Made by a program: the position numbers and the translations under genes. From the NCBI GenBank assembly GCA_016215655.1, contig JACRIT010000004.1, positions 13,492-77,491 on the forward strand: a DNA stretch of 64,000 nt. Reading direction: 5' to 3'. The notes beneath the pieces were generated by a model. That model searched no databases. It was not told the DNA's origin and worked only from the letters and a program-made list of their open reading frames with translations. Shown here one piece after another: positions 7,718 to 64,000 of this stretch. The stretch's first letter is position 1. The number at the start of each line of letters is the position of its first letter. This stretch comes from Acidimicrobiia bacterium (GTDB taxonomy: Bacteria; Actinomycetota; Acidimicrobiia; Spongiisociales; UBA11373).

Positions 7718-8758
7718 TCACCGCAGCATGCTCTCCACGGCGTCCACCAGCGCTCTGATCCACGCTCGATCGTCGTCGTCGAGCCGGGCGATGCCCTGCA
7801 TGCCTTCGAGCGCCGCGATCGCTTCGGCGATGAGGTCGGGAGCGGGCACGGCGTCGACGAGGGAGAGGAGGGTGGCGACCGTGGCGGCATCGTCCGAACC
7901 CTCCCGGTCGAATCGCCATGATCGCGGAGGTGCCGTACAGGCCGCATCGATCAGGGCGGTCAGATGGTCGGCGAGCGCCGCCATCCGGGAATGGTCGAGG
8001 AGTTCGGGTCGATCGTGCGGAGAGTGGTACACAGCAGACCGACCACCCGTATAGAAGAGGTGGGGGATCCCTGCGGCGCGAAAGGCGAGGTGGTCGGACA
8101 GGGGAGTCACCACCCAGTCGGCGATGGGCCGGGGCACGATCCCGGCGATGTCGGGCACATGCACCGCCGGCACGAGACCCGGGGCGAGGTCGGCGCCGGC
8201 CACGAAGATCGTGGCCGCCACCTCGGTGGGTGTATCGGCCGTCCCGATGTCGTGGCCGACGAGGTCGAGGCAGATCATGAGCTCCACGTCGGACAGCGGC
8301 ACGGTGGGGTGGTCCACCCACCACTGCGAGCCCATGTCGGGCGAATCGAACCAGGGCGGTTCCTCGGCGTCGAAGGCGCAGACCAGGATGGAACGGCCGC
8401 GGCGGGTTTCTCTGGCCAACCGGCCCGCCACCTCGACGAGCACCGCCACCCCTGCGGCGTTGTCGTCGGCGCCGGGATGGATGGTGCCGGAGATCTCTCC
8501 GAGATGGTCGTAGTGGGCGCCGAACACCACCCAACCGGGGGCCTTGCCGGGGATGGCGCCGAGGACATTGGCGCCGGCCATGGCGGGGAGGAGTTGCAGG
8601 TACCCGTGCTCGCCCCTGGGTTCGAGACCGGAGGCTGTGAAGGCCTCCACGAGCATGGCGCGAGCCGCCGCGCCGCCTGGAGATCCAGCTGCTCGTCCGG
8701 CGAGTGCCGGGGCGCACAGGGCCTCCACGACGCGGCGCATTCGGTCGATGGGGGTCAT
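7718..8758 (-). CDS. M28 family metallopeptidase (aminopeptidase)
   Basis: 346 aa with M28 zinc-binding motifs (HYDH, DDNAAG, EE). Confidence 0.75.
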   Translation of the reverse strand: MTPIDRMRRVVEALCAPALAGRAAGSPGGAAARAMLVEAFTASGLEPRGEHGYLQLLPAMAGANVLGAIPGKAPGWVVFGAHYDHLGEISGTIHPGADDNAAGVAVLVEVAGRLARETRRGRSILVCAFDAEEPPWFDSPDMGSQWWVDHPTVPLSDVELMICLDLVGHDIGTADTPTEVAATIFVAGADLAPGLVPAVHVPDIAGIVPRPIADWVVTPLSDHLAFRAAGIPHLFYTGGRSAVYHSPHDRPELLDHSRMAALADHLTALIDAACTAPPRSWRFDREGSDDAATVATLLSLVDAVPAPDLIAEAIAALEGMQGIARLDDDDRAWIRALVDAVESMLR

Positions 8759-8762
8759 CGAT

Positions 8763-10004
8763 TCAGCCTACGGCCGGATTCGCCCCGGGTTTGTCATGAC
8801 GCCGCGCCGCGACCAGGAACGGGATCGCAATCGCCTGGGTTGCGCCAGCCACCAGATACGAAGCGCCGAACCCCCAGGCATCGGCGGATCGCCCGAGCAG
8901 CGGCTGGGCGACGACGCTCCCGGACGACCCCATGAGCGCCACGAATGACAGGACCGTGGCCCGCTCTCCGGAGGAGATGTGGCTGTTGAGGTAGGCCTGC
9001 CGCACCGGCACCGCGGCGGCGAAGCCGACCGCCCAGATCACGAGCAACGCCACCGCCCATCCGAAGTGCTCGGTGACTCCCATGAGACCGAGGGCGACGG
9101 TGCCGATCACCACGGCGCCGATGAGTACTTCGGTGCGCCGCTCCGTCATCCGCAGAACCGTGGTGGCAAGAAGACCGCCCGCGATCTGGGCGCCGGCGAG
9201 TACCGCCGCCGCCAGCCCGGCGATGCCGAATGCGGTGTCGTCGCCGTACAGCTCGAGCAGGTAGGGCTGCATCGCATAGAAGACATACAGGCTCACCCCG
9301 ACGGTGAAGGGCGTCGCCAGCATCATCCACCGCACCGGGGGATGGCGCCAGCCACCAGCGATCGAGGTCCGCAGTACCCGGCGTATCTCGTCGGCGGTGC
9401 GTTCGCCGCGCTTGGGTGCGAACCCGATGTCGTGCATCGCCACCGCCGCGACGACAAAGGTCAGGGCGAGTACTCCGCTGCGAACCAGGTAGGGGACCGC
9501 CAGATTCGTCACCTGGGCCAGGTATCCCCCGGCCACGGTCCCGGCGAGCATGGCGATGCCGCCGATGGTCTGGCCCCGACCGAACACGGCGGCGAGGTCA
9601 CCGGCGAAACCCGTGGAGGCGAGGGCGTCGACCAGCCACGCCTCGACGGCTCCGGAGAAGAACGTGAACCCGAGTCCGATGGCGGCCGAGGCCACCGCCC
9701 ATCCCCACAGGGGGGCCTCGATCTGCCACATGAGGAGATAGGCCAAGGTGGCGGCGAAGAGCGTTGCCGCACCCAGGAGAAACGAGGCACGACGGCCCCT
9801 GGTGTCGGCGACGACCCCGGTCGGCACCTCGAAGATCACCATTCCGAGAGCGAAGAAGGCGTTGGCGACGAAGGCCTCGGTGGTGGTGAGGCCGGCATCG
9901 AGCAGGAACAGGGTGTTGACCCCCCAGATGAACGACGCCGCCAGCGTGCTCAGCAGGGTCAGCAGGAGATAGGTGCGCTGCACGGCGCGTACGGCAGGGG
10001 GCAC
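8763..10004 (-). CDS. MFS transporter
   Basis: 413 aa with 12 predicted TM segments and MFS-type loops. Confidence 0.8.
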   Translation of the reverse strand: MPPAVRAVQRTYLLLTLLSTLAASFIWGVNTLFLLDAGLTTTEAFVANAFFALGMVIFEVPTGVVADTRGRRASFLLGAATLFAATLAYLLMWQIEAPLWGWAVASAAIGLGFTFFSGAVEAWLVDALASTGFAGDLAAVFGRGQTIGGIAMLAGTVAGGYLAQVTNLAVPYLVRSGVLALTFVVAAVAMHDIGFAPKRGERTADEIRRVLRTSIAGGWRHPPVRWMMLATPFTVGVSLYVFYAMQPYLLELYGDDTAFGIAGLAAAVLAGAQIAGGLLATTVLRMTERRTEVLIGAVVIGTVALGLMGVTEHFGWAVALLVIWAVGFAAAVPVRQAYLNSHISSGERATVLSFVALMGSSGSVVAQPLLGRSADAWGFGASYLVAGATQAIAIPFLVAARRHDKPGANPAVG

Positions 10005-47203: not shown

Positions 47204-47620
47204 ATGAGCGCATTGGCCGGGGGACTGTTGTTGGCCGCCGTCCTGGTGGCGATCGTTGCGGCCTTCCTGTGGCAGGGCGGGCGCCGCTTTCGGGACGGCG
47301 GAGCCGTCATCTACGCCCTCGATGATGCGAGTCGCTTCGTCCACGGGCGTCTCGATCCGGCGACCCGGGACCGAGTGACGCCTGGCCAGGTGCGACGGGT
47401 GCTCGAATGGCAGATCGAGTACCAGCAGGTGGTGGCACCACGAGCCGGGCTGCGTCCCGTCATCGGTGGTGGTGACGCGATGGAGCACATCCTCGAGCGT
47501 GCCGGGGAGCGTGGCGACACCCTCGATCCCGTGGATGTGGCCGAGATCATGGCTGCCGACGTCGAGTACCTCATGTCGATCCACGCCGTCGGGGCTCCGG
47601 CCGAGGGTGGCGTCGGATGA
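47204..47620 (+). CDS. hypothetical membrane-anchored protein
   Basis: 138 aa with an N-terminal TM segment; stop overlaps the next ORF's start. Confidence 0.4.
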   Translation: MSALAGGLLLAAVLVAIVAAFLWQGGRRFRDGGAVIYALDDASRFVHGRLDPATRDRVTPGQVRRVLEWQIEYQQVVAPRAGLRPVIGGGDAMEHILERAGERGDTLDPVDVAEIMAADVEYLMSIHAVGAPAEGGVG

Positions 47621-47892
47621 TCGTGCGGTGCGGCCGATGCCGCGCAGGGTTCGACGTGCCCGGCCCGGGTCGTCACGGTTGTCCGGCGTGCGGCACCGTC
47701 AACGAGGTCCGCGCGGCGACGGCGCCCGTGGTACCCACACCACCGCCGGTGCCGACCTACGAGCCTCCCTCCCCGCGGGTGACCTGCCCCGAGTGCGGGT
47801 TCTCCTTCATCGTCGGTGCCGTCGCCGCGGTTCCCTGCCCGAATTGCCGCAACCCCGTTACGGTGGACCACACCGAGGAGGGGCAGGCATGA
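47617..47892 (+). CDS. zinc-ribbon domain protein
   Basis: Two CxxC...CxxC pairs (CGRC...CPAC; CPEC...CPNC); translationally coupled on both sides. Confidence 0.5.
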   Translation: MIVRCGRCRAGFDVPGPGRHGCPACGTVNEVRAATAPVVPTPPPVPTYEPPSPRVTCPECGFSFIVGAVAAVPCPNCRNPVTVDHTEEGQA

Positions 47893-49532
47893 ACCGCGCC
47901 GAGTGGGAACGGGAGTACGCCGAGGCGGCGAAACGCCGCGACCACTGGGTCACCCTGTCGTTCGAGGACCTTCCCGCCCTCGGTCTCCCCGAAGACGGCG
48001 CCGAGCCGCCGGAGCGAGTCGGGTATCCGGGTGGCTTCCCCTATACGCGCGGCATCCACAGCACCGGATACCGGGGCAAGCCGTGGACGATCCGCCAGTT
48101 CGCCGGGTTCGCCGGTGTGGCAGAGACGAATGCCCGGTTCCGCCACCTGCTTGCCGAAGGACAGCACGGACTGTCGGTGGCCTTCGACATGCCCACGCTG
48201 ATGGGACTCGACTCCGACAGCCCGCTGGCACTCGGCGAGGTGGGGCACTGCGGCGTCGCCATCGACACCGCCGACGACATGGCCGATTTGTTCGATGGCA
48301 TCCCGCTTGGCGAGGTGTCGGTGTCGATGACGATCAATGGACCCGCCCAGGTGCTGTTCGCCTTCTTCCTGGTGGCCGCCGAGGAGCAGGGCGTTCCCTG
48401 GGCGCGGGTGCGCGGAACGCTCCAGATCGACATCCTCTAGGAGTACATCGCCCAGAAGGAGTGGATATACCCACCCCTCCCGCACCTGCGGCTCATCACC
48501 GACATGATGTCGTTCTGTGCCTCTGAGGTTCCGCAGTGGAACACCATTTCGGTGAGCGGGTACCACATCCGCGAAGCCGGGGCCAACGCTCACGAGGAAC
48601 TCGCCTTCACCCTTGCCGACGGGTTCGCCTACGTCGAGGCGGCGATGCGGGCGGGGATGCCCGTCGACCAGTTCGCCCCGCGGCTTTCGTTCTTCTTCGA
48701 CTCCCACCTCGACTTCTTCGAGGAGATCGCCAAGTTCCGGGCCGCTCGCCGGATCTGGGCGAGGTGGATGCGGGACCGGTATGCGGCGGGCGACGAGCGC
48801 TCCTGGAAGTTGCGCTTCCACACCCAGACCGCGGGGGTGTCGCTCACCGCCCAGCAGCCCGACAACAACGTCGTGCGTACCGCCATCGAAGCCCTGGCGG
48901 CGGTCCTCGGTGGCACCCAGTCGTTGCACACGAATGCTCTCGACGAGGTCTACGCGCTCCCCACCGAGCGCGCCGCCGAGATCGCACTGCGGACCCAGCA
49001 GGTGATCGCGGAGGAGACCGGTGTGGCGGACGTCATCGACCCTCTCGGGGGATCATGGTTCGTGGAAGCGATGACCGACGCGATGGAGGATCGGGTGGAG
49101 AGGCTGCTCGCCGAGATCGATCGCATGGGATCGGGCTCGATGCTCGATGGCGTGTTGCGGGGCATCGAGGATGGATGGTTCCAGAACGCTCTCGCCGACT
49201 CGGCGTATGCCTTCGAGAAGGCCCTCGGGTCGGGGGAGCGTACGATCGTCGGAGTCACCAAGTACGCCGCGGCCGACGAAGACCACCTCGACATCCTCCG
49301 CATCGGGTCGGACGTGGAGACGATCCAGCGCCGGCGCATCGCCGAGGTCCGTGGACGGCGCGACGGGGCCGCGGTGGCCGCGGCGCTCGAGGAGCTCGCC
49401 TCGGCAGCGGCCTCCGGGGCGAACCTGATGCCGTTGCTCGTCGCCGCCGCCCGGGTGCGTGCCACCGAGGGCGAGATGACGGCGGCCATGAAGGCGGTGT
49501 TCGGTGGGTATCGGGAGCCACCCCGTGTCTGA
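47889..49532 (+). pseudogene. methylmalonyl-CoA mutase family catalytic (N-terminal TIM-barrel) domain gene, interrupted by an in-frame TAG at 48438-48440
   Basis: Full-length alignment to the MCM alpha-chain substrate-binding domain. TAG replaces the conserved Lys in ...NDIL(K)EYIAQKEW...; the frame is otherwise intact; no B12-binding domain follows. Confidence 0.6.
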
Positions 49533-49721: not shown

Positions 49722-50141
49722 ATGAGCAACGTCCGATGCCTTCCAGCGGTCGTGATCGTGGCCCTGTTGCTCGCCGCGGGGTGCGGCGGTGACGGCGGTT
49801 CGACCGCGACCGTTGGTGAGCAGGTGGTGTTCGGCGAGGGTGAGCCGCCGCCGGCCTTCCCCGGTGATTTCCCCATTCCGGCGAATGCCGTCATCGGGAC
49901 GACGCTGGTGGATCGGATCAACCACCGCAGCGAGATGGCGCTCCAGATCGAGGGGGTGCTCGACGCCGCCGTGCAGAACTTCACCATCGGCCTCGTCAGC
50001 CAGGGCTACGTCATCACCAACTCCGAGGGGACCGACGAGTCCTGGACGATCGCATTCAACCGCGGCGAATTGCAGGGCGAGGTCGTCTTCCAGGCGGTGG
50101 GTGGATTCACCCAGGCCGTGGCCAGTGTGAACCGGACCTGA
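49722..50141 (+). CDS. hypothetical lipoprotein
   Basis: Signal peptide plus lipobox LLAAGC; 139 aa. Confidence 0.5.
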   Translation: MSNVRCLPAVVIVALLLAAGCGGDGGSTATVGEQVVFGEGEPPPAFPGDFPIPANAVIGTTLVDRINHRSEMALQIEGVLDAAVQNFTIGLVSQGYVITNSEGTDESWTIAFNRGELQGEVVFQAVGGFTQAVASVNRT

Positions 50142-50453
50142 CATGGCGCGGCTCCGTCATTTCGAGCACCACCGGTTCATCGGATTGCGAGACACCATGC
50201 TCGTCTTCGACACGGATGATCCCGATCAGGCTCGGCGAGCCGACGATCTGGTCGGTCCCGGTGGGGCACTGGGTCGCCTGGCGGTGGCCACGTTCGCCCC
50301 GGATTCTCTCGTCGAGGCTCGCAACCGCGGTTTCCGTCCCGTTCCATCGCGGCGCCCCGCCCCCTGAGGGCGCTCGCACCCGGAACCCCCTCATCGGCAG
50401 GCGGCCAGGGTCGGACCAGCAGGCGGCCGAGCGCTCGCCCGTACGGGTGCGAG

Positions 50454-51083
50454 CTAGGCGGGAGTGGGGGTGCGGCCTCCGAAGTGCGCTGCCACCACCT
50501 CGCCGACCTTCCGCTCGCGATAGAGGAAGAAGTGGTCCGAGCCCGGGAGCACCGTCATCTCGGCATGACACCGTGCCGCGAAGTGCTCCATGTCGGCCAC
50601 GGTGGCGAACTGATCGCGGTCACCGATCACGATCCTGCGCCGTGCCGGGACGAGCAGGGCGAGATCCGGCGGGAGCGATCCGCGATACGGGCGGATTCCG
50701 GGAGCGATCCCGACCCAGGGCAGCGACGATCCGGACTCGGCCTGCCATGCGAGCGACACGCTGGCCCCAAATGACCACCCGGCAACCCCGAGGGGCAGAC
50801 CGGGGTGGGTGGCCGCGGCGAGCTCGACGGCGGCGGCGACATCGAGGACTTCCCCGCTGCCACCACCCCAGGTGCCCTGGGAGGCGCCAACACCACGGAA
50901 GTTGAACCGCAACACGGCGAGTCCGGCATCTCCCACCGTCGCGGCCACGGTGCGCATCAACGGGGTCGTCATCGTCCCGCCGTCGAGCGGATGCGGATGG
51001 CACAGCACGATCGCTCCCAGCGGCTCCGAATCGGGCGTGGTCCAGATCCCCTCGAGCACCACCCCGTCCGCGGTGGTGATCAT
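50454..51083 (-). CDS. alpha/beta hydrolase
   Basis: GWSFG nucleophile elbow plus a later conserved His; start at 51083 or 51104. Confidence 0.65.
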   Translation of the reverse strand: MITTADGVVLEGIWTTPDSEPLGAIVLCHPHPLDGGTMTTPLMRTVAATVGDAGLAVLRFNFRGVGASQGTWGGGSGEVLDVAAAVELAAATHPGLPLGVAGWSFGASVSLAWQAESGSSLPWVGIAPGIRPYRGSLPPDLALLVPARRRIVIGDRDQFATVADMEHFAARCHAEMTVLPGSDHFFLYRERKVGEVVAAHFGGRTPTPA

Positions 51084-51275
51084 CCGGCGACCCGGAGTAA
51101 CCACGCCACCGAGGCCGTCAGGATCAACAGGGCGGTCACCAGGGCGGCAACGATGAGGTAGCGGGTCTGCATTCGCGCCGAGAGGGTACCGGCGCCCCCG
51201 GTGGAGGCATCCCCATCTTCTCTTGGTTCGAGATCGCGCACCGATCTAGGCTCTGGCGAACCGACTGGAGGCGCT

Positions 51276-52649
51276 GTGTACGACGTCGCGATCATTGGGG
51301 GCGGTCCGGGCGGATACGCCGCCGCCCTGTACGCGCACAATTTCGGTCTCTCGGTTGCCCTGGTCGAGAAGGCGCAGGTCGGTGGCACCTGCCTGCACCG
51401 GGGCTGCATCCCCGCCAAGGCGTGGATTCACACCGCCGAAGTGTTCGCCGAGGTCGCCGGTGCGGCCGAGTTCGGGGTCATCGCATCGGCTCCGCAGCTC
51501 GACTGGGGGCGGGCTCTGGAACGCAAGAACGCCGTGGTCGGCCAGCTGTACAAGGGCTTGCAGGGCCTCCTGAAGCAGCGCAAGGTGGACATCGTCGCCG
51601 GGACCGGCCGCCTCTCCGGTCCGGGGATCGTCGATGTCGCCGAGATCGCCGGTGGGGCGCGGCGCATCGAGGCGCGCAAGGTCATCATCGCCACCGGATC
51701 CGTGCCTCGCACCCTGGCCGGGTACGAGCCCGATGGGGAGCGGCTCGTGACGTCGGACGTCGCCCTCGACTGGACCAGCCGGCCGGACCGGGTGGCGGTC
51801 ATCGGGGCCGGGGCGATCGGGGTCGAGTTCGCCTGCATGCTTGCCGAACTCGGGACCGAGGTTCACCTCTTCGAAGTCTTCGACCAGGTGCTGCCCGGCG
51901 TCGAGCCCGAGGCAGCCAAGCTCATCACCCGGCTGCTGGGGCGCAAGGGCATCCGGGTGGCCACCGGCGTCAAGGTCGACCCCCCGGTGATGACCGCGGC
52001 GGGGGTCAAGGTGTCGGCAGGTGGATCCGAGGTCGAGGTCGATGTCGTCCTGGTCGCGGTCGGCCGGGCTCCGCTCACCGCCGGGATCGGCCTCGAGGAG
52101 GCAGGTGTCCGACTCGACCGTGGGTACGTCGTCGCCGATCGGGCCACGATGCTCACCGATGCCCCCGGTGTCTACGCCGTCGGTGACATCGTGGCCGCGA
52201 CCCCGCAGCTCGCCCACGCCGGGTTTGCCGAAGGGATATCGGCCATCACCCATATCGCCACTGGAACCCCTGCTCCGGTCGACTATCGGGCCATTCCGCT
52301 CGTGGTGTACTCGATACCCGAAGTCGCCTCGGTGGGTCTCACCGAAGCTCAGGCCCGCACCGCCGGCCACGACGTGGTCACGACCGACCACGGCATGGGC
52401 GGCGTTGGCCGGGCGATCATCCGGGGGCAGGCCCAGGGTCTGGTCAAGATCGTTGCCGAGCGGGGTGGTCCCATCCTCGGTGCCACCATCGTCGGGCCGG
52501 AGGCGGGAGAGCTCATCCACGAGCTGATGTACGCGGTCGGCTGGGAGGCTCTGCCCTCGGAGGCGGCGGCCTTCATCCATGCCCATCCCACACTCGCCGA
52601 GGCGGTGGGCGAGTCGCTCCTCGCCGCCTCAGGCCGGAGTCTGCACTGA
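51276..52649 (+). CDS. lpdA: dihydrolipoyl dehydrogenase (E3)
   Basis: GTG after GGAGG; redox disulfide GGTCLHRGCIPAK; C-terminal dimerisation domain. Confidence 0.85.
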   Translation: MYDVAIIGGGPGGYAAALYAHNFGLSVALVEKAQVGGTCLHRGCIPAKAWIHTAEVFAEVAGAAEFGVIASAPQLDWGRALERKNAVVGQLYKGLQGLLKQRKVDIVAGTGRLSGPGIVDVAEIAGGARRIEARKVIIATGSVPRTLAGYEPDGERLVTSDVALDWTSRPDRVAVIGAGAIGVEFACMLAELGTEVHLFEVFDQVLPGVEPEAAKLITRLLGRKGIRVATGVKVDPPVMTAAGVKVSAGGSEVEVDVVLVAVGRAPLTAGIGLEEAGVRLDRGYVVADRATMLTDAPGVYAVGDIVAATPQLAHAGFAEGISAITHIATGTPAPVDYRAIPLVVYSIPEVASVGLTEAQARTAGHDVVTTDHGMGGVGRAIIRGQAQGLVKIVAERGGPILGATIVGPEAGELIHELMYAVGWEALPSEAAAFIHAHPTLAEAVGESLLAASGRSLH

Positions 52650-52671
52650 TCATGGCCATGCTGAGGCGATC

Positions 52672-54669
52672 GTGATCGAAGCGAAGGGACACTCCGCGGA
52701 GCTCGACTCGTCGCGCTTGCTTGCGATGTACGAGCTCATGATCACGGGCCGTCTGCTCGAAACTCGACTGCACACGATGTACCGCGGTGGCCGGCTTCCC
52801 GGAGCCGTCTACCCGGGGGTCGGCCAAGAGGCCGCACAGGTCGGGTTCGCCTCGGCGTTGGAGGCGGGAGACATCTTCGGCCCGACGCATCGCGATCTTC
52901 TCGCCCAGCTCACCCGCGGTGTGACGCTGGAGGAGACGATGCTGAACTTCTTCGGCAAGGTCACCGGGCCGACGAAGGGTCGCGACGGCAACAGCCACTT
53001 CGGGGTGCTCGACAGGGGGACCCTCATGGTGGTTTCGCCGCTCCCCGACGCCTATCCCGTCGCCATGGGGGCTGCCCTTGCCTTCAAGCAGCGCGGCGAA
53101 CGGCGCGTGGCCCTCGCCGACTGTGGGGAGGGGTCCACGGCCACCGGCACCTGGCATGAGGCGGTGAACATGGCAGCGGTCCTGCGGCTGCCCATCGTGT
53201 TCACCGTCCAGAACAACCAGTACGCCTACTCGACCCCCAATGATCTCGAGTTCAGCCTCGCCTCCGCCGGGCACCGCGCCGACGGGTACGGGATTCCGGG
53301 TGTCGTGGTCGACGGCAACGATGTGCTCGAGTGCTACGCCGCGGCGCGAGAGGCGGTCGAACGAGCCCGCAACGGTGAAGGGCCGACCCTCATCGAGGCG
53401 GTCACCTTCCGTCACTTCGGACATGCCGGTCACGACCCTGCCGAGTACGTCAAGCCCGACGAGCGCGAGGCATGGCTCGCCAAGGATCCGATCCCGCGCT
53501 TCGAGGAGTTCCTCGGCACGCGCGGCCTGCTCGATCAGGCCGGGCGAGAGGCCATCGCCGCCCGGATCGAAGAGCGGATCCGCGGCGTCATCGAGTGGGC
53601 GCAGACCCAGCCCGACCCGACGATCGCCGATCTCGCCACCGACTTGTTCGCGGTGGCGCCCGAGCCATCGGCTCCGGGACCCGGTGAGGGGGTCGGCGAG
53701 CCTGTGACGATGATCGATGCCATCACCCAGGCCCTCGACGAGGAGATGGAGCGCGACGAACGGGTGTTTCTCCTGGGTGAGGATGTCGGTCCCTTCGGCG
53801 GAGCCTTCAAGGTCACCAAGGGCCTGTTCGAGAAGTACGGCCCGATGCGGGTCATCGACACCCCCATCGCCGAGTCCGCCATCGTTGGTGGCTCGGTGGG
53901 AGCCGCCCTCATGGGTCAGATTCCGGTGGCCGAGCTGCAGTACACCGACTTCATCTACCCCGGCCTCGATCAGCTCTTCAACGAGGCAGCCAAGTACCTC
54001 TGGAAGGGCGGGAGATCGGTGCCGATGGTGCTGCGCGGCCCCAGCGGCGCCGGCCTGCGGGCGGGCCCGTTCCATTCGATCAGCCCCGAGGGGATGCTTG
54101 CCCATCACCCCGGGATCAAGATCGTCGTGCCCAGCACGCCCACCACCGCCAAGGGTCTCCTGGTGGCGGCAATCCGCGACCCCAATCCCGTCGTGTACCT
54201 CGAACACAAGAAGCTCTACCGCAGCATCAAGGAGGCCTTGCCGGCCGGACGGTTCGAACTTCCGCTCGGCAAGGCCCGGCTGGTGCGCACAGGCGACGAT
54301 GTGACCATCGTGACCTGGGGGGCGATGGTGCACACGGCGACGGCAGCCGCCGAACTCCTCGATGCGGATGGCGTATCGGTGGAGATCCTCGATCTGCAGA
54401 CGATCGTGCCCCTCGACTGGGACGCGGTATTCGCCTCGGTGCGCAAGACGTCCCGGCTCGTCGTCGTCCAGGAAGATGTGCCGTTTGCCTCGGTCGCCTC
54501 GGAGGTGGCAGCCCGGATCGCCGCCGAAGCCTTCTGGGACCTCGACGGGCCGATCATCCGCGTGACGCCTCCTCACACCCACATTCCGTTCGCCACGATT
54601 CTCGAAGACGCCTTCATCCCGCAAGTCGCCGACATAGTCACCGCCGTCAATACACTCGCGGCGTCGTAG
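52672..54669 (+). CDS. 2-oxoacid dehydrogenase E1 component, fused alpha-beta (TPP-dependent)
   Basis: N-terminal half carries the E1-alpha TPP-binding region; C-terminal half carries E1-beta transketolase-like and C-terminal domains; single 666-696 aa ORF. GTG start tentative. Confidence 0.75.
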   Translation: MIEAKGHSAELDSSRLLAMYELMITGRLLETRLHTMYRGGRLPGAVYPGVGQEAAQVGFASALEAGDIFGPTHRDLLAQLTRGVTLEETMLNFFGKVTGPTKGRDGNSHFGVLDRGTLMVVSPLPDAYPVAMGAALAFKQRGERRVALADCGEGSTATGTWHEAVNMAAVLRLPIVFTVQNNQYAYSTPNDLEFSLASAGHRADGYGIPGVVVDGNDVLECYAAAREAVERARNGEGPTLIEAVTFRHFGHAGHDPAEYVKPDEREAWLAKDPIPRFEEFLGTRGLLDQAGREAIAARIEERIRGVIEWAQTQPDPTIADLATDLFAVAPEPSAPGPGEGVGEPVTMIDAITQALDEEMERDERVFLLGEDVGPFGGAFKVTKGLFEKYGPMRVIDTPIAESAIVGGSVGAALMGQIPVAELQYTDFIYPGLDQLFNEAAKYLWKGGRSVPMVLRGPSGAGLRAGPFHSISPEGMLAHHPGIKIVVPSTPTTAKGLLVAAIRDPNPVVYLEHKKLYRSIKEALPAGRFELPLGKARLVRTGDDVTIVTWGAMVHTATAAAELLDADGVSVEILDLQTIVPLDWDAVFASVRKTSRLVVVQEDVPFASVASEVAARIAAEAFWDLDGPIIRVTPPHTHIPFATILEDAFIPQVADIVTAVNTLAAS

Positions 54670-54680
54670 GAGAAACCACC

Positions 54681-56198
54681 ATGTCGCTCACGGTCACGAT
54701 GCCGCAACTCGGGGAGACGGTCACCGAAGGCACCATCTTGCGATGGGCCAAGAAGGCCGGTGACACGATTCGCGAAGACGAGACGCTGCTCGAGATCTCG
54801 ACGGACAAGGTGGATACCGAGGTGCCGTCGCCGATCGCCGGCACCATCCTGCAGATCCTCGTGGCGGAAGGCGCCACGGTATCGGTGGGCACCCCGCTCG
54901 TCATCATCGGTCAGGCCGGGGAGGCAGCGGCTTCGCCGGCGGCCATGTCCGCGGCGCCGCCGGCCCCCGTTGCGGCTCCCGTGGCGCCGGTGGCACCGAC
55001 CGTGTCCGCCACACCGCCGGTGGCAGCGCCTCCTGTGGCGGCCCCGGTGGCGGCGCCCCCAGCCACCGTGTCGATGCCACAACCCCAGGTGATGAACGTG
55101 ACCGTGACGCGCGATCCGGGGATGCTGTCTCCGGTCGTGCGCCGCCTCGCTGCCGAGCACGGGATCGATCTGTCTCGGGTCATCGGCACGGGAATCGACG
55201 GGCGGATCACCCGACGCGACGTGGAGGCGCATGTCGCCTTGGCCGCGGCGGTGCCGAGGTCCCAGCCCGAGCCGTCACGCACCGTGCTCGGGCGTGGCAT
55301 CCAGGATCTCATCTCCGAGGAACCCGCCCCGGCGGACCATGTGCTGTTCACCCCGGCGGCCCCGGTGGCAGCGGCCACGGTGCCCCCGGTGCCGGTGGCC
55401 CCGGTCCCGGCCACGACGACGACACCGTCGCCGGCGACGGTGGCTCCAGCAACGGCACCCGTCCCGGTCTTCTCGGCGGAAGGTTCGGTCGAGGACCTCT
55501 CCCGACTCCGCATGCGCATCGCCGAGAACATGATCCGGGCCAAGCAGACCGCGGCTCACGTGTGGACGTCGGTCGAAGTCGACTTCGAGCACGTCGAGCG
55601 GATACGTTCTCGCCATCGCGAAGGCTTCAAGGCGCGCGAGGGCTTCTCGCTCACCTACCTCCCGTTCATCAGCCGGGCGACGGTGGATGCCCTCAACACG
55701 TTCCCGGTGGTCAACTCGAGTCTCGATCTGCCCAACCGGGTGCGGATCATGCATGGTGGGGTGAACCTCGGCATCGCCATCGATCTGAACGAGGATGGCC
55801 TCGTCGTGATGACCCTCCGGGGTGCCGATGGGCTGCGCCTGCGCGGCATCGCCCGCGAGGCGCGCCGACTCGCCGACAAGGCGCGAACGGGCAAGATCGA
55901 GCCGGACGATCTCGCCGGGTCGACATTCACCATCACCAATCCAGGACCGTTCGGGTCGTTCATGTCGGCTCCCATCATCAACGTGCCAAACGTCGCGATT
56001 CTGTCCACGGACACGGTGGTGAAGCGACCGGTGGTCGTCACCGACAAGGATGGCAATGACGCCATCGCCATCCATCACATCGGGTATCTCGGTTTGAGCT
56101 GGGACCACCGCGCCTTCGATGGATCCACCGCGGTCATGTTCCTCAGTCGCATCAAGCAGAACCTCGAGACCTGGGACTGGGAACAGGAACTGGCGTGA
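54681..56198 (+). CDS. dihydrolipoamide acyltransferase (E2)
   Basis: Lipoyl domain with lipoyl-Lys (ISTDKV), peripheral subunit-binding domain, Ala/Pro linkers, catalytic DHRAFDG motif. Confidence 0.85.
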
Positions 56199-57829
56199 CC
56201 CTCCTCAGGGTTCGCTGGCTCGGCCGGCTGCCCTATGCGGAGGCCTGGGATCTGCAGCGGGCGCTCCACGAGGGCCGGGTGGAGGGCCGATCGGCTGACG
56301 ACTACCTGCTCCTCCTCGAGCACCCCCACGTGTTCACCGTCGGCCGGTTCTCGGCAGGTGCGAACGTATTGCTGTCCGCGGAGGACGCCACTGCAGTTGG
56401 CGCCGAAATCCACCGAGTGGATCGTGGTGGCGACGTCACCTATCACGGCCCAGGTCAACTCGTTGGGTACCCCATTCGCCATCTCGGAGATCGGCCTGCC
56501 AGTGCCGATCACGTGCACCGGATCGAGGAGATGCTCATCGCCGTGCTTGCCGACCTGGGCCTGCGGGGATGGCGCGAGCCGGGCTTGCCCGGGGTGTGGA
56601 CCGAGCAAGGAAAGGTCGCCGCCATCGGGGTGCGAACGGCACATCGGGTCACGACGCACGGCTTTGCGCTGAATGTCGCTCCGGACCTCGACTACTTCCG
56701 TCACATCATTCCCTGTGGCATTCCGGATCGTCCGGTGACCAGCCTCGCCGCACTGCTGGGGCGAGCGATCTCGATCGAAGAGGTCGTGGACGTGTTGGTG
56801 CCGCACTTCGCCGCGGTCTTCGGCTACGAGGCCGTCGAGCAGCAGCGCGCCGCCTTTGTCCGCGGTGCGGGCCGCAACGGTGCCCGGTTCGAGATCGACG
56901 AGCTGGTTGCCTCAGGCGCGTTCTCGCCGGAGGGGCGTGGTTCGCTTCCGATCACCACCCGCGGCAGGCTGCCCGGCGAGCCCGACAAGCCCGAATGGAT
57001 GAAGGTGCGTCTCGACCTGGGTCCGGGATACCGCGACCTCAAGCGCCTCGTCGAGGGGATGCGTCTCAACACGGTGTGCGAGGAGGCGTCATGTCCCAAC
57101 ATCTCCGAGTGCTGGGGGAGTGGCACGGCGACGTTCATGCTCCTCGGGGAGGTATGCACCCGAGCCTGCAGCTTCTGTGACGTTGCCACCGGGCGGCCTG
57201 GTGAGGTCGATCGGGATGAACCGAAGCGTGTCGCCGAGGCCATCACCGAGATGCGATTGGAGCACGCCGTGCTCACGTCGGTGAACCGTGATGATCTCGA
57301 TGACGGTGGCGCGGAGATCTTCGCCGAGACCATTCGCCAGATCCGGGCGCGACTCGCCTGCGAGGTCGAAGTGCTCATCCCCGACTTCAAAGGCGACCGG
57401 GATGCTCTCCAGACGGTGATGGACGCTTCCCCCGACGTGCTCAATCACAACACCGAAACCGTGATACGCCTGCAGCGCGAGGTTCGCACCGCGGCGAACT
57501 ATGGCCGGTCGCTCGCCCTCTTGGCCCGGGCGCGGTGGATGCGACCCGAGTCCCGCATCAAGTCAGGGCTCATCGTCGGCATGGGCGAGACGCACGACGA
57601 GGTGCTCGGTGCGCTTGCCGATCTGCGGGCAGTTGGCGTGAGCATCGTCACCATTGGCCAGTACCTTCGGCCGACCGCCCGACACCGGCGCATCGACAGG
57701 TACGTGCATCCCGACGAGTTCGCCGAGTACAAGGCGGTCGGCGAGGCGCTCGGGCTGCGCCATGTGGAGAGCGGCCCCTTGGTGCGTTCCTCGTATCACG
57801 CCAAGGAGGCTGCTCGGGCCGGGGTTTGA
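56195..57829 (+). CDS. lipB/lipA: fused octanoyltransferase LipB - lipoyl synthase LipA (single 544-aa ORF)
   Basis: N-terminal about 230 aa matches LipB; C-terminal about 300 aa matches LipA with radical-SAM box CTRACSFC and the auxiliary-cluster cysteines [12 protein letters not shown]; no stop codon between the two. Confidence 0.8.
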
Positions 57830-57874
57830 GTGGCGGGTCGCGAAGTGTCATTGGTGCGGGGTACCTTCTGAGTC

Positions 57875-59008
57875 ATGACCACCCTCTTGGGCGGGCCCGT
57901 GGCAGGCTCGCTGCTCGAGGAGGACGATGGGTTGCCGCTCGATCTGATCGGCGACACCGAACTCAACGACCGCTACGTTGGGCTCCGTCGGAGGCTCACC
58001 CGACTCGAAGCGGAAGCCGCTCGGATCCTCGCGGAGATCGATCGTCGCCGATCGTTCGAGCCGGATCACTTCACTGCGGAGGCGTTTCTCCAGAACCGAG
58101 TCGGTGATTCCGGCCGCGCAGCGAGGCGAAACGTCGCCGAGGCGCGCGGCCTGGACGAGTACGCCGCCGTGCGTGAGGCCTTCGCCGCAGGTGAGATCGA
58201 CCGTCCCAGGGTGGCGATGCTCCTGGCGTCGTCGCGGGTCTCGCCGGACCACTTCCGGCGGGATCAGAGCATGCTCGTCGAGACGGCGATGAGCCAGTCC
58301 ATGGCGGCCACCCATCAGGCGCTCGAGTACTGGAAACAACACGTCGATCGCGAAGCGGCCGATGCCGACCGCGAGCACCTCTATCGGAGGCGGCACCTTC
58401 ACGTTGCTCCGGCCCTTGGCGGCATGGTCCGAGTCGATGGGGAATTGGACCCGGTGGGTGGGAAGACGGTGCTCCTTGCCCTCCGCGCACTCACCGATTA
58501 CACCAACCTCGAGCCAGGAGATCCACGGACTCCCGGGCAGCGGCGCGCCGACGCGCTCGTCGACCTCTGTTCCGACCACATGGTGCACGGCGACACGACG
58601 GAAACCGGTGGATCGCGACCGGGGATGGTCGTGACGGTGGCCCTCGATGTCCTTCAGGGCCGAGCGGTGGCGCCCTGCGAACTCGAAGATGGCACGGTGA
58701 TCGCACCCGAGACGGCGAGGCGCATCGCCTGCGACGCAGGGGTGAGTCGGGTGCTCACCAAGGGCGAATCCGAGATCCTCGACGTCGGGCGGGCCAGCCG
58801 TGTCGTCCCCGCGGCCCTGCGCCGCGCCCTCGCCCTGCGAGACAAGGGGTGTACCCATCCAGGATGTACGCGGCCGCATCACTGGTGCGACGCCCATCAC
58901 ATCGTCCATTGGGCCGATGGAGGAGAGACCTCACTCGCCAATCTGGTCTTGCTTTGCAGACGCCACCACCGAATGGCGCATGAGGGAGCCTTGCGGCGGC
59001 TGGAGTAG
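57875..59008 (+). CDS. DUF222 domain plus HNH endonuclease (actinobacterial 13E12-repeat-type)
   Basis: C-terminal HNH motif HHIVHWADGG...N...LLCRRHH. Confidence 0.7.
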   Translation: MTTLLGGPVAGSLLEEDDGLPLDLIGDTELNDRYVGLRRRLTRLEAEAARILAEIDRRRSFEPDHFTAEAFLQNRVGDSGRAARRNVAEARGLDEYAAVREAFAAGEIDRPRVAMLLASSRVSPDHFRRDQSMLVETAMSQSMAATHQALEYWKQHVDREAADADREHLYRRRHLHVAPALGGMVRVDGELDPVGGKTVLLALRALTDYTNLEPGDPRTPGQRRADALVDLCSDHMVHGDTTETGGSRPGMVVTVALDVLQGRAVAPCELEDGTVIAPETARRIACDAGVSRVLTKGESEILDVGRASRVVPAALRRALALRDKGCTHPGCTRPHHWCDAHHIVHWADGGETSLANLVLLCRRHHRMAHEGALRRLE

Positions 59009-59040
59009 GCGCTCCGGCGAGGTCACTACCCTCGGCGGAC

Positions 59041-60138
59041 ATGTTTCCCGATGCCGACTACTCAGGCCGACTCGACCGGGCGCGGGCGCTCATGGACGAG
59101 CGCGATGCAGACGTAATGCTGCTTTCGGTGGGTGCCGACCTGCCCTACTTCGCCGGGTACGAGGCGATGCCCCTGGAGCGGCTCACGATGCTCGTGGTGC
59201 CGAAAGACGCAGGCGCGGTGCTCGTGGTCCCACGACTCGAGGCTCCACGGATCGCGCTCCGCGGGGGCGCGTTCGAAGTGTGGCCATGGGACGAGCTCGA
59301 CGATCCCGTGGGCGTTGTGGCGCGGCATGCCGGCAAGGCGGACCTCGCGTTGATCGGTGAGCAGACATGGTCGCGCTTTCTCCTCGAGCTGCAGCGGACG
59401 ATGCATCGCACGCGATTTGAGTCCGCGTCTGCTGTCACGCGCCAGCTGCGGATGCGGAAGGATGCCGCTGAGATCGAATTGCTGCGCGCTGCCGCGGCCG
59501 CCACGGACCGGGTCGTGGCCGCACTCGATGGTGTGGCCTTCGGCGGGCGAACGGAGCGTGATCTTGCTGCGGAAGTGCAGCGCCTGGTCATGGCCGAGGG
59601 TCACGACATCGCCTCGTTCGCCATCATCGCCTCCGGTCCCAATGCGGCATCGCCCCACCACGAGCCAACAGATCGGATGATCGAGGAGGGTGACACCGTG
59701 GTCGTGGACTTCGGCGGCAGGTGGCACGGGTACTGCTCGGACACGACACGCACCTTCGTCGTCGGCGAGCCGTCTCCCGAGATCGCGGCGGCCCATTCCG
59801 TGCTCGAGGCCGCCCAGGCCGCCGGAAGGGCTGCGGTGCGCCCCGGCGCCACCGGGGAAGATGTCGATGCGGCTGCCCGGAAGGTCATCGACGCCGCCGG
59901 GTATGGCGACCACTTCATCCACCGCACCGGCCACGGCATCGGCCTCGAGGTGCATGAGCATCCATACATCGTGGCTGGCAATAGCGAGCCGTTGGAAGCA
60001 GGCATGACGTTCTCGATCGAGCCGGGGATCTATCTGCCCGGCCGATTCGGGATGCGTATCGAGGATATCGTCGCCTGCTCGACCGACGGCATCGATGAGC
60101 TCAATCGCTCGCCGCGCACGCTGCACGAGGTGAGTTGA
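59041..60138 (+). CDS. M24 family metallopeptidase (Xaa-Pro aminopeptidase/dipeptidase)
   Basis: Pita-bread-fold metal ligands (D, D, H, E, E) in conserved spacing. Confidence 0.8.
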   Translation: MFPDADYSGRLDRARALMDERDADVMLLSVGADLPYFAGYEAMPLERLTMLVVPKDAGAVLVVPRLEAPRIALRGGAFEVWPWDELDDPVGVVARHAGKADLALIGEQTWSRFLLELQRTMHRTRFESASAVTRQLRMRKDAAEIELLRAAAAATDRVVAALDGVAFGGRTERDLAAEVQRLVMAEGHDIASFAIIASGPNAASPHHEPTDRMIEEGDTVVVDFGGRWHGYCSDTTRTFVVGEPSPEIAAAHSVLEAAQAAGRAAVRPGATGEDVDAAARKVIDAAGYGDHFIHRTGHGIGLEVHEHPYIVAGNSEPLEAGMTFSIEPGIYLPGRFGMRIEDIVACSTDGIDELNRSPRTLHEVS

Positions 60139-62105: not shown

Positions 62106-63833
62106 CTAGTCGCGTGCCGCGTCGATGAATCCCTCGGATTCCAGGTGGAGGATGATCCGCTGAGCCGCCTGCTCCGGGGAGATGTCGGTGGTGTCGATCA
62201 CGACTTCCGCGTCGGTGGGACTCTCGTAGGGGTCGGATATCCCGGTGAACTCCTTGACGATGCCGGCCCGCGCCTTGGCATACAGACCCTTGCGGTCCCG
62301 CTGCTCGCAGACTTCCAGCGGGGTGGCGACATGAACGAGCGCGAACCCGCCCATCGGTGTGATCAGGTCGCGAACCTGCTGACGAACCGCGGCGTACGGA
62401 GCGATCGGGGCGCAGATGGCGATCCCCCCGTTCTTGGTGATCTCCGATGCCACGTATCCGATACGAAGGATGTTCAGGTCGCGGTGTTCCTTGGAGAAGC
62501 CCAGCTCCGACGACAGATTCTTGCGAACGAGGTCGCCGTCGAGCAACGTCACCGGCCTCCCGCCCATCTCGAGCAGCTTCACCCGGAGCACGTTGGCTAT
62601 CGTGGACTTCCCCGAACCGGACAAACCGGTGAAGAAGACCGTGAAGCCCTGTTTGCTGCGTGGGGGGTGGGTCTTGCGAAGCTCCTCGGCCACCTGTGGG
62701 AACGTGAACCACTCTGGGATCTCTCGCCCGTCCTGCAGGCGGTCGCGAAGCTCTGTTCCTGAGATCGAGAGCGTCCGGGTACCCGCCGCGATCTCGTCGT
62801 CGGGCGCGTAGGCGTCCTGATCGGGGAGATACACCATGTTCCTGAAGTCGACCATCACCACACCGAGCTCGGCCTCGTGGGCAGCCAGCAGAGTCTGAGC
62901 GTCGTACGGACCGTAGAAGGGCTTGCCCGTGGAGTCGGACCCGGGACCGGCGTGATCGCGTCCCACGATGAAGTGGGTGCAGCCGTGGTTCTTGCGGATG
63001 ATGGCATGCCACACCGCTTCACGGGGTCCAGCCATGCGCATGGCGAGAGGGAGCAGGGCCAACTCGGCAGTATTGGCGGGGTATCGCGGCATGATGGCTT
63101 GATAGGCACGCACCCGGGTGTAGTGATCGACGTCGCCGGGCTTCGTCATCCCGACCACGGGATGGATGAGCAAGTTGGCCTCGACCTCACGGGCAGCACG
63201 AACGGTGAGCTCGAGGTGGGCGCGGTGCATCGGGTTTCGAGTCTGGAAAGCGACGATCCGACGCCAGCCGCGGCGACGGAATCGCTCCCGAACCTCGGCG
63301 GGAGTCATGCGCAGCGTGGCGAAGTCGTAGTGGGGGGGAAGGCTCAGCGCCTCGATGGTTCCTCCGACGTACCAGGGTGCAGTCCGATCCAGGAGGGCGG
63401 CGACCCCGGGATGCTCCCGGCTGGTCGTGCCGAATACCAGGCGGGCTTCGCGCTCCCGATCCGGTTCCCACACCTCGGAGACGCGGAGCACCCCGACCAT
63501 GACCCCCTCGTCGTCACGCAGCGCCAGGGCGCCGCCGGGTTCGAGGCGGGCGGCAAGGTCCGGCATGACGTCGAGCGTGATCGGGATCGGCCACAGGGTG
63601 CCGTCTGCGAGCCGCATTTCGGTGACGACCCGGTCGTAGTCGGAGCGGCCGAGGAAGCCCCGTAACGGCGAGAAGCCGCCATTGATGAGCAGTTCCAGGT
63701 CGCAGGTCTGGCGTGGGGTGAGGTCGTGTGACGGCAAATCGCGCGACTCGGCCTTGATCTCGGCGGCCCGGACCGGATCGACGATCAGGTCCACGAGGGT
63801 GCCTCCGTGGGGGGCGATCAGGCTGTCGGGCAT
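62106..63833 (-). CDS. bifunctional sulfate adenylyltransferase (ATP sulfurylase) / adenylylsulfate kinase
   Basis: N-terminal Sat domain (QTRNPMHRAH, GRDHAG) fused to a C-terminal APS kinase (FTGLSGSGKST); internal ATG chosen at 63833. Confidence 0.8.
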   Translation of the reverse strand: MPDSLIAPHGGTLVDLIVDPVRAAEIKAESRDLPSHDLTPRQTCDLELLINGGFSPLRGFLGRSDYDRVVTEMRLADGTLWPIPITLDVMPDLAARLEPGGALALRDDEGVMVGVLRVSEVWEPDREREARLVFGTTSREHPGVAALLDRTAPWYVGGTIEALSLPPHYDFATLRMTPAEVRERFRRRGWRRIVAFQTRNPMHRAHLELTVRAAREVEANLLIHPVVGMTKPGDVDHYTRVRAYQAIMPRYPANTAELALLPLAMRMAGPREAVWHAIIRKNHGCTHFIVGRDHAGPGSDSTGKPFYGPYDAQTLLAAHEAELGVVMVDFRNMVYLPDQDAYAPDDEIAAGTRTLSISGTELRDRLQDGREIPEWFTFPQVAEELRKTHPPRSKQGFTVFFTGLSGSGKSTIANVLRVKLLEMGGRPVTLLDGDLVRKNLSSELGFSKEHRDLNILRIGYVASEITKNGGIAICAPIAPYAAVRQQVRDLITPMGGFALVHVATPLEVCEQRDRKGLYAKARAGIVKEFTGISDPYESPTDAEVVIDTTDISPEQAAQRIILHLESEGFIDAARD

Positions 63834-64000
63834 CGTCTCTCCTTGGGCGCGTCGGGTTGCCGGGAAGGCGGGGGATCGGCCGGAGTGTAGAACGGGAGTG
63901 GAGGGCATCCCCTTCGGTCGTACACTCGCCGGCCGTGGAACCATCTGCAGTGCTCGCCGCCTGGGCCGCCGGCATCGCCGCCGGCACGGCATTCGTGACG

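Follow-up and report, generated by a model that had tools for sequence, protein, structure and literature searches.

LipB octanoyltransferase, LipA lipoyl synthase and the lipoylation pathway to which they belong are textbook knowledge, and the fusion of consecutive pathway enzymes into one chain is common. In E. coli, LipB and LipA are separate proteins whose genes lie away from the E2 genes, and in work by Hassan and Cronan from 2011 (J Biol Chem) the two reportedly co-purified, non-covalently, with 2-oxoacid dehydrogenase complexes. In other Actinomycetota, sucB, lipB and lipA are adjacent genes, while proteins of the NCBIfam model NF053790 (LplA_LipA_fuse) likewise carry, N-terminal to LipA, an enzyme for acyl attachment from the LplA/LipB superfamily. 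We analysed a stretch of 64,000 nucleotides (contig JACRIT010000004.1) from a metagenome-assembled genome (MAG) of an Acidimicrobiia bacterium, in the following called the window, in which one open reading frame (ORF) on the plus strand (56195..57829, GTG start, 544 amino acids (aa) plus stop) carries a LipB and a LipA domain in a single chain, with a conserved linker of about 50 aa between them. Very probably this ORF encodes a single bifunctional LipB-LipA polypeptide of about 60 kDa, with both activities predicted from sequence. What is observed, and on which this reading is based, is one conserved reading frame, intact motifs, matching folds, selection on the linker and a conserved gene order.

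Domain architecture of the fused reading frame

Both halves of the chain are genuine members of their respective families, scoring above cutoff, with their catalytic motifs intact and with the right fold. The LipB octanoyltransferase domain spans aa 3-213 (56201..56833, plus strand), where it matches the LipB equivalog NF010925 with 203.1 bits against a cutoff of 155, next to 142.9 bits against 83.55 for the second LipB model of NCBIfam, TIGR00214, and 151.6 bits against 27 for LplA-B_cat (PF21948, aa 13-206) of Pfam. The LipA lipoyl synthase domain follows at aa 265-540 (56987..57814, plus strand), with 408.2 bits against a cutoff of 203 for NF004019 over exactly this range and 353 bits against 310.25 for TIGR00510, and is resolved by Pfam into LIAS_N (aa 265-300) and Radical_SAM (aa 317-475). 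The claim of a preliminary description, that a complete LipB and a complete LipA reside in one 544-aa ORF, is thereby borne out for both sets of equivalog models as well as for all motifs. Membership in the LplA_LipA_fuse family was considered and rejected, since the chain, with 366.7 bits, falls short of the 800-bit cutoff and covers only profile positions 332-605, i.e. the LipA half. The N-terminal partner differs accordingly, being in NF053790 the ATP-dependent ligase LplA with an accessory domain and in the window the transferase LipB, which depends on acyl carrier protein (ACP).

Residue invariance was counted over 66 fused homologs from the clade of the window, at identities of at least 66%. 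In the LipB domain, the RGGD and HGPGQ motifs are invariant, as are Lys140 (codon AAG, 56612..56614, plus strand), the candidate catalytic lysine of the Cys-Lys dyad, and P173, C174 and G175 of the PCG motif, in which Cys174 (56714..56716, plus strand) is the candidate acyl-thioester cysteine. We take Lys140 to be the dyad lysine from what is known of LipB, and both residues were presumed to correspond to those of E. coli and M. tuberculosis LipB from the motifs. In the LipA domain, invariance extends to C295, C300 and C306 of the CX4CX5C motif, the ligands of the auxiliary [4Fe-4S] cluster (aa 295-306, 57077..57112, plus strand), to C321, C325 and C328 of the CX3CX2C radical-SAM (S-adenosylmethionine) motif CTRACSFC (aa 321-328, 57155..57178, plus strand) and to all four residues of RSSY (R531, S532, S533 and Y534; 57785..57796, plus strand), a motif that provides the auxiliary cluster with its serine ligand.

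The two halves resemble stand-alone enzymes of known structure in family, motifs and fold, namely LipB from M. tuberculosis (1W66) and T. thermophilus (2QHS) and LipA from M. tuberculosis (5EXI, 5EXK) and T. elongatus (4U0P). On the level of sequence, the LipB half matches 2QHS with E=1.1e-49 and 1W66 with E=4.5e-45, and aa 243-537 align to chain positions 23-316 of 5EXI with E=1.5e-85. An AlphaFold2 model, built from the 66-sequence alignment, reached a mean predicted local distance difference test score (pLDDT) of 83 and a predicted template modelling score (pTM) of 0.86, with both domains confident and pLDDT near 90 over aa 1-215. Values below 50 were obtained for the linker at aa 220-234 and 251-256, and confidence was also low in a LipA loop (422-433) and in a cluster-ligand region (531-533) for which the cluster is absent from the model. 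Foldseek superimposed the N-terminal half on 2QHS with a target-normalised TM-score of 0.94 (root-mean-square deviation, rmsd, 1.9) and on 1W66 with 0.86, and the C-terminal half on 5EXK with 0.90 (rmsd 1.8, 49% identity) and on human LIAS with 0.88-0.91, while none of the PDB entries among the Foldseek matches covered both halves. The pTM of the two-domain chain, a summary score, hints at a defined mutual orientation of the LipB and LipA domains in the predicted structure.

Both domains appear constrained, with ratios of nonsynonymous to synonymous substitution rates (dN/dS) of 0.12-0.14 for LipB and 0.06-0.09 for LipA in Nei-Gojobori comparisons with the three closest loci, values which are approximate because dS is saturated. 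These data bear on the possibility that the N-terminal half is a dead LipB-like domain, which would only recruit lipoyl domains to LipA, while octanoylation is carried out by LipM, LplA or another enzyme. A second lipA, lipB or E2 copy was not found in the 64-kb window, to which the copy search extended, and another transferase could be encoded elsewhere in the genome. However, a domain that exceeds the LipB equivalog cutoffs, retains Lys140, Cys174 and the RGGD and HGPGQ motifs without variation, superimposes so closely on the LipB fold and evolves under such constraint is hard to reconcile with loss of catalysis, and we consider a dead LipB domain highly improbable.

Recurrence of the fusion and the domain junction

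The LipB-LipA fusion is the standard, class-wide state in Acidimicrobiia. In a search of 5.8 billion proteins, the best 120 clusters at 90% identity all comprised proteins of 507-571 aa with both Pfam domains, at identities down to 67% and with a query coverage of 90-100% (98-100% in 119 of the 120). When the protein search was repeated from an Iamiaceae sequence (about 50% identity), it added at least 120 further fused clusters, and the top 150 matches among 1.84 billion representatives at 50% identity included 67 proteins of the order LipB-LipA and seven of the order LipA-LipB. With hundreds of independent sequences sharing it, the architecture is far beyond what chance would give. It is also present in a cultured isolate, 'Acidimicrobiia bacterium EGI L10123', where the fused protein (P0324; LipB 2-204 and LipA 273-551 by NCBIfam) is encoded on a 4.1-Mb contig. 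In a genome scan with one genome per GTDB species, we translated each of 80 loci from its LipB match to its LipA match and found both in one frame, with zero stops between them, in 74. The rarity implied by the preliminary description is therefore not upheld, all the more since a sequence-identical protein is already present in NCBI under the title 'MAG: lipoyl synthase [Acidimicrobiia bacterium]'.

Two loci of the scan deserve separate mention. One (L035) is a contig-end fragment. The other (L072), which might be taken for an unfused exception within Acidimicrobiia, was rejected as such, because LipB, linker and the first 107 LipA residues are continuous and the frame shifts only inside the LipA domain. 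This locus comes from a long-read Acidimicrobiia MAG (CBDBCY010000004.1), and the shift lies at about 9088-9098, near LipA aa 104-107; it is probably an indel error and possibly marks a pseudogene. As a separate observation, five Acidimicrobiia-like loci (L002, L008, L020, L023 and L050; 57-77% identity, order E3-E2-lipBA) occur in MAGs labelled as Kiloniellaceae, Kiloniellales, Gemmatimonadales, Acidobacteriota or Acidobacteria, which suggests mis-binned contigs or mislabelled bins.

With the source of the window being a MAG, it had to be considered that a missed stop codon or a frameshift merged adjacent lipB and lipA genes during assembly, the more so as at least one site elsewhere in the window, a TAG in a methylmalonyl-CoA mutase gene, is probably a nonsense mutation or an error, and as lipB and lipA of Streptosporangiaceae share a frame with a single stop between them, so that losing this stop by one substitution could look like a fusion. 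Such an origin is contradicted by the unbroken frame in 74 of 80 species-level genomes, obtained with many assemblers and technologies, more than 240 fused protein clusters including the one from the cultured isolate, and a linker which contains conserved residues at a dN/dS of about 0.15 and which, being free of start codons, would offer a separate lipA no site for initiation. Assembly error is thereby effectively refuted and excluded for practical purposes.

By hidden Markov model (HMM) boundaries, the inter-domain linker comprises aa 214-264 (56834..56986, plus strand) and is free of both stops and starts. It had previously been described as a stop-free stretch of about 40 aa, of which the absence of stops holds, but not the length. 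The HMM boundaries give about 50 aa, and since aa 243-264 can be aligned to residues 23-47 of 5EXI, which belong to the N-terminal extension of LipA from M. tuberculosis, only about 28 aa remain without homology to either LipA or LipB. Eight positions (G224, D235, G241, G257, L259, G261, E262 and P263) are invariant in the 66 sequences and others nearly so, and the linker dN/dS of 0.14-0.17, approximate for the same reason as those of the domains, is close to that of the LipB half. From its conservation, the linker appears to be translated and under purifying selection.

Over the 74 fused loci, linker length varies from 26 to 97 aa (median 55.5), so that the reading frame must have been kept through many insertions and deletions. 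Two linker types can be distinguished. The type of the window comprises 46-50 aa with the consensus Q..AAF.RG.G..FEVD.L...G.FSP...P...G.LPGEP, and the Acidimicrobiales type starts with DVAWR..DLAPF.RGEG.G and continues with a low-complexity insert of variable length and then GTSVRLLGRLAEAGV, an element resembling the RKLLRLEVRN found at the start of actinobacterial LipA proteins that stand alone. Judged by these alignments, what we call the linker appears to consist of the C-terminal tail of LipB, then a variable tether and finally the former N-terminal extension of LipA.

A single ORF could still give rise to two proteins, either by internal initiation of LipA or by cleavage of the linker, in which case the fusion would merely ensure co-expression of both enzymes. 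The linker is indeed predicted to be largely disordered in the regions of low pLDDT and would be accessible to proteases, and many relatives carry a GTG, ATG or TTG somewhere in their linkers. These possible start codons are, however, not conserved in position among the 74 loci and are expected at such G+C content, and six loci besides the window have linkers free of them. In the window, a listing of the in-frame starts (ATG, GTG or TTG) has no entry between aa 203 and 268. The first start past LipB is the ATG of M269 (window position 56999), upstream of which no Shine-Dalgarno-like sequence was seen. As already stated in the preliminary description, initiation at this only nearby ATG would truncate the N-terminus of LipA; the conserved KPEW would be lost. 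The motifs conserved in the linker and the purifying selection on it are also better suited to a functional tether than to a disposable spacer. Taking both sides into account, we regard the production of two separate proteins as unlikely and retain the single bifunctional chain as the preferred reading.

Separate genes, other fusions and annotation

Separate lipB and lipA genes, which the preliminary description had expected in other actinobacteria, were encountered in four Streptosporangiaceae loci of the genome scan (L076 and L078-L080), each with a stop, a short spacer and a lipA start of its own. The gene order E2-lipB-lipA is the same there as in the window. Rows of the tblastn output had seemed to show a fusion in this family as well, which was rejected on direct translation, because of the stop and the separate lipA start. 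It should be noted that in L076, L078, L079 and L080 (at about 8600-8800) lipB and lipA are in frame with each other and separated by exactly one stop, so a single substitution would be sufficient to give a read-through fusion. This makes single-substitution read-through a plausible route by which such fusions could have originated.

Outside the clade of the window, both enzymes are combined in further ways. A Planctomycetota MAG encodes a protein (P0132) of the same order LipB-LipA. Seven proteins (P0140, P0152, P0153, P0169, P0170, P0180 and P0213), one of them, P0153, on a contig of 7.85 Mb, likewise carry both enzymes in one chain of 492-542 aa, but in the opposite order LipA-LipB and with much shorter linkers of 5-23 aa, features which indicate that they result from independent fusion events. 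One of the representatives (P0244, 626 aa) is an LplA-LipA fusion with 723 bits against the 800-bit cutoff of NF053790. From the two domain orders, fusion of an attachment enzyme with lipoyl synthase appears to have occurred independently several times. A neighbour-joining tree of LipA domains groups the clade of the window coherently; it is star-like and unlabelled, and some of its 'LipA-only' neighbours may be fragments. The recurrence of LipB-LipA, LipA-LipB and LplA-LipA chains represents comparative evidence that attachment and sulfur insertion gain from proximity.

The LipB-LipA fusion is thus already in databases, is under-annotated there and appears to be an undescribed variant of a known pathway. 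Public records name such proteins only 'lipoyl synthase', and NCBIfam has no model for a LipB-LipA fusion, while one exists for LplA-LipA. The preliminary description had named, as an outcome that would refute it, a fusion both common among orthologs and already described: common it is, as the genome scan showed, whereas a full-text literature search, covering few subscription journals, did not bring up a report on any natural fusion of LipB with LipA. A 2023 survey of lipoate assembly in PLoS Biology discusses, among fusions, only LplA/LplB (PMC10332631).

With its LipB function hidden under the name 'lipoyl synthase', the fusion may lead automated metabolic reconstructions to score LipB as missing across Acidimicrobiia, an annotation which a curated bifunctional model would mend. 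Acidimicrobiia are abundant in soil, marine and wastewater metagenomes. Furthermore, a natural single-chain LipB-LipA, available also from a cultured isolate, could be used as a reagent for structural and kinetic work on the hand-off to lipoyl synthase.

Gene neighbourhood and proposed lipoylation route

The presumed substrate of the fused enzyme is encoded directly upstream by the gene for the E2 dihydrolipoamide acyltransferase (54681..56198, plus strand, 505 aa), in which Pfam detects a single Biotin_lipoyl domain (4-76), an E3_binding domain (149-182) and a 2-oxoacid_dh domain (269-498). Lys43 in the context ...STDKV... of the translation (54807..54809, plus strand) is presumably the lipoyl-lysine, an assignment based on the DK motif that is canonical for lipoyl domains. 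As claimed previously, the fused gene overlaps the E2 stop codon, with the lipBA start and the E2 stop sharing the sequence GTGA (56195..56198, plus strand, from the ORF coordinates). The overlap recurs as NTGA in 20 related loci, and in most others the E2 stop is separated from the lipBA start by anything from a few bases to some tens. The order E3-E2-lipBA, with E2 directly upstream of lipBA, is found in most related loci, so the earlier statement that the substrate and both lipoylation steps are encoded contiguously extends well beyond the window.

Further upstream, the window encodes a fused alpha and beta E1 (52579..54669, plus strand, 696 aa) with the Pfam domains E1_dh (53-349), Transket_pyr (375-548) and Transketolase_C (564-686), preceded by the E3 dihydrolipoamide dehydrogenase gene lpd (51201..52649, plus strand; Pyr_redox_2 and Pyr_redox_dim in Pfam). 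The E1 ORF begins inside E3, with an overlap of 70 nt, for which reason the true E1 start probably lies downstream of the ORF start. Outside the window, such a fused E1 between E3 and E2 occurs only in L001 and L002, the two loci closest to it, and no E1 homolog was present in the fetched flanks of the other Acidimicrobiia loci, which show the order E3-E2-lipBA. A promoter and terminator scan over 50000-59200 gave nothing above shuffled expectation, with a method that is uninformative for a high-GC actinobacterium.

We propose a model in which the LipB domain would accept the octanoyl group of octanoyl-ACP on Cys174, the dyad partner of Lys140, and would then pass it to Lys43 of E2, and presumably to other lipoyl proteins as well. 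The LipA domain would subsequently use its radical-SAM [4Fe-4S] cluster, bound by the CX3CX2C motif, and two SAM molecules, with the sacrificial auxiliary cluster, held by CX4CX5C and the serine of RSSY, supplying the sulfur for insertion at C6 and C8. Fusion would fix a 1:1 stoichiometry of the two activities and would keep LipA beside the freshly octanoylated domain, while the GTGA overlap may couple synthesis of the enzyme to that of E2 by translational coupling. Compared to the association described above for E. coli LipB and LipA, a fusion coupled to E2 would represent a hard-wired version, a likeness that we mention as a lead only.

Two points weigh against this picture of a bifunctional chain. 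The advantage of a hand-off, that is, a kinetic benefit of tethering, is conjecture, and a 1:1 fusion to a catalytic LipB is not obviously optimal, since LipA is consumed with each turnover unless its auxiliary cluster is rebuilt. A more far-reaching version of the model, in which the octanoylated lipoyl domain of nascent or freshly assembled E2 moves straight to the LipA site without dissociating and output is tied to E2 by the start/stop overlap, draws on the conserved tether and on the pTM of the two-domain chain, and can be put forward only tentatively, as we think it rather doubtful. If true, LipB-LipA would be a natural covalent model for the coordination of two steps of lipoate assembly and a handy single-chain target for the structural capture of the transfer from transferase to synthase.

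Downstream of lipBA follow a DUF222/HNH gene, an M24 peptidase and a transketolase. The first of these, encoding DUF222 and an HNH endonuclease, lies directly downstream at 57875-59008 on the plus strand; genes of this kind are often present in multiple copies in actinobacterial genomes. The methylmalonyl-CoA mutase gene mentioned above (47466-49532, plus strand) is interrupted by a single in-frame TAG at 48438-48440 (…TLQIDIL*EYIAQKEW…), which divides it into two ORFs of the same frame that cover Pfam profile positions 24-164 and 187-512. The family has a conserved lysine at this position, so that the change would presumably be one from AAG to TAG. It reflects either a nonsense mutation or a pseudogene, or else the MAG contains a sequencing error. 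Another fused pathway enzyme of the window is encoded on the minus strand (62106-63992), where an ORF of 628 aa combines PUA_2, ATP-sulfurylase and APS-kinase domains in the manner of the bifunctional Sat/CysC type.

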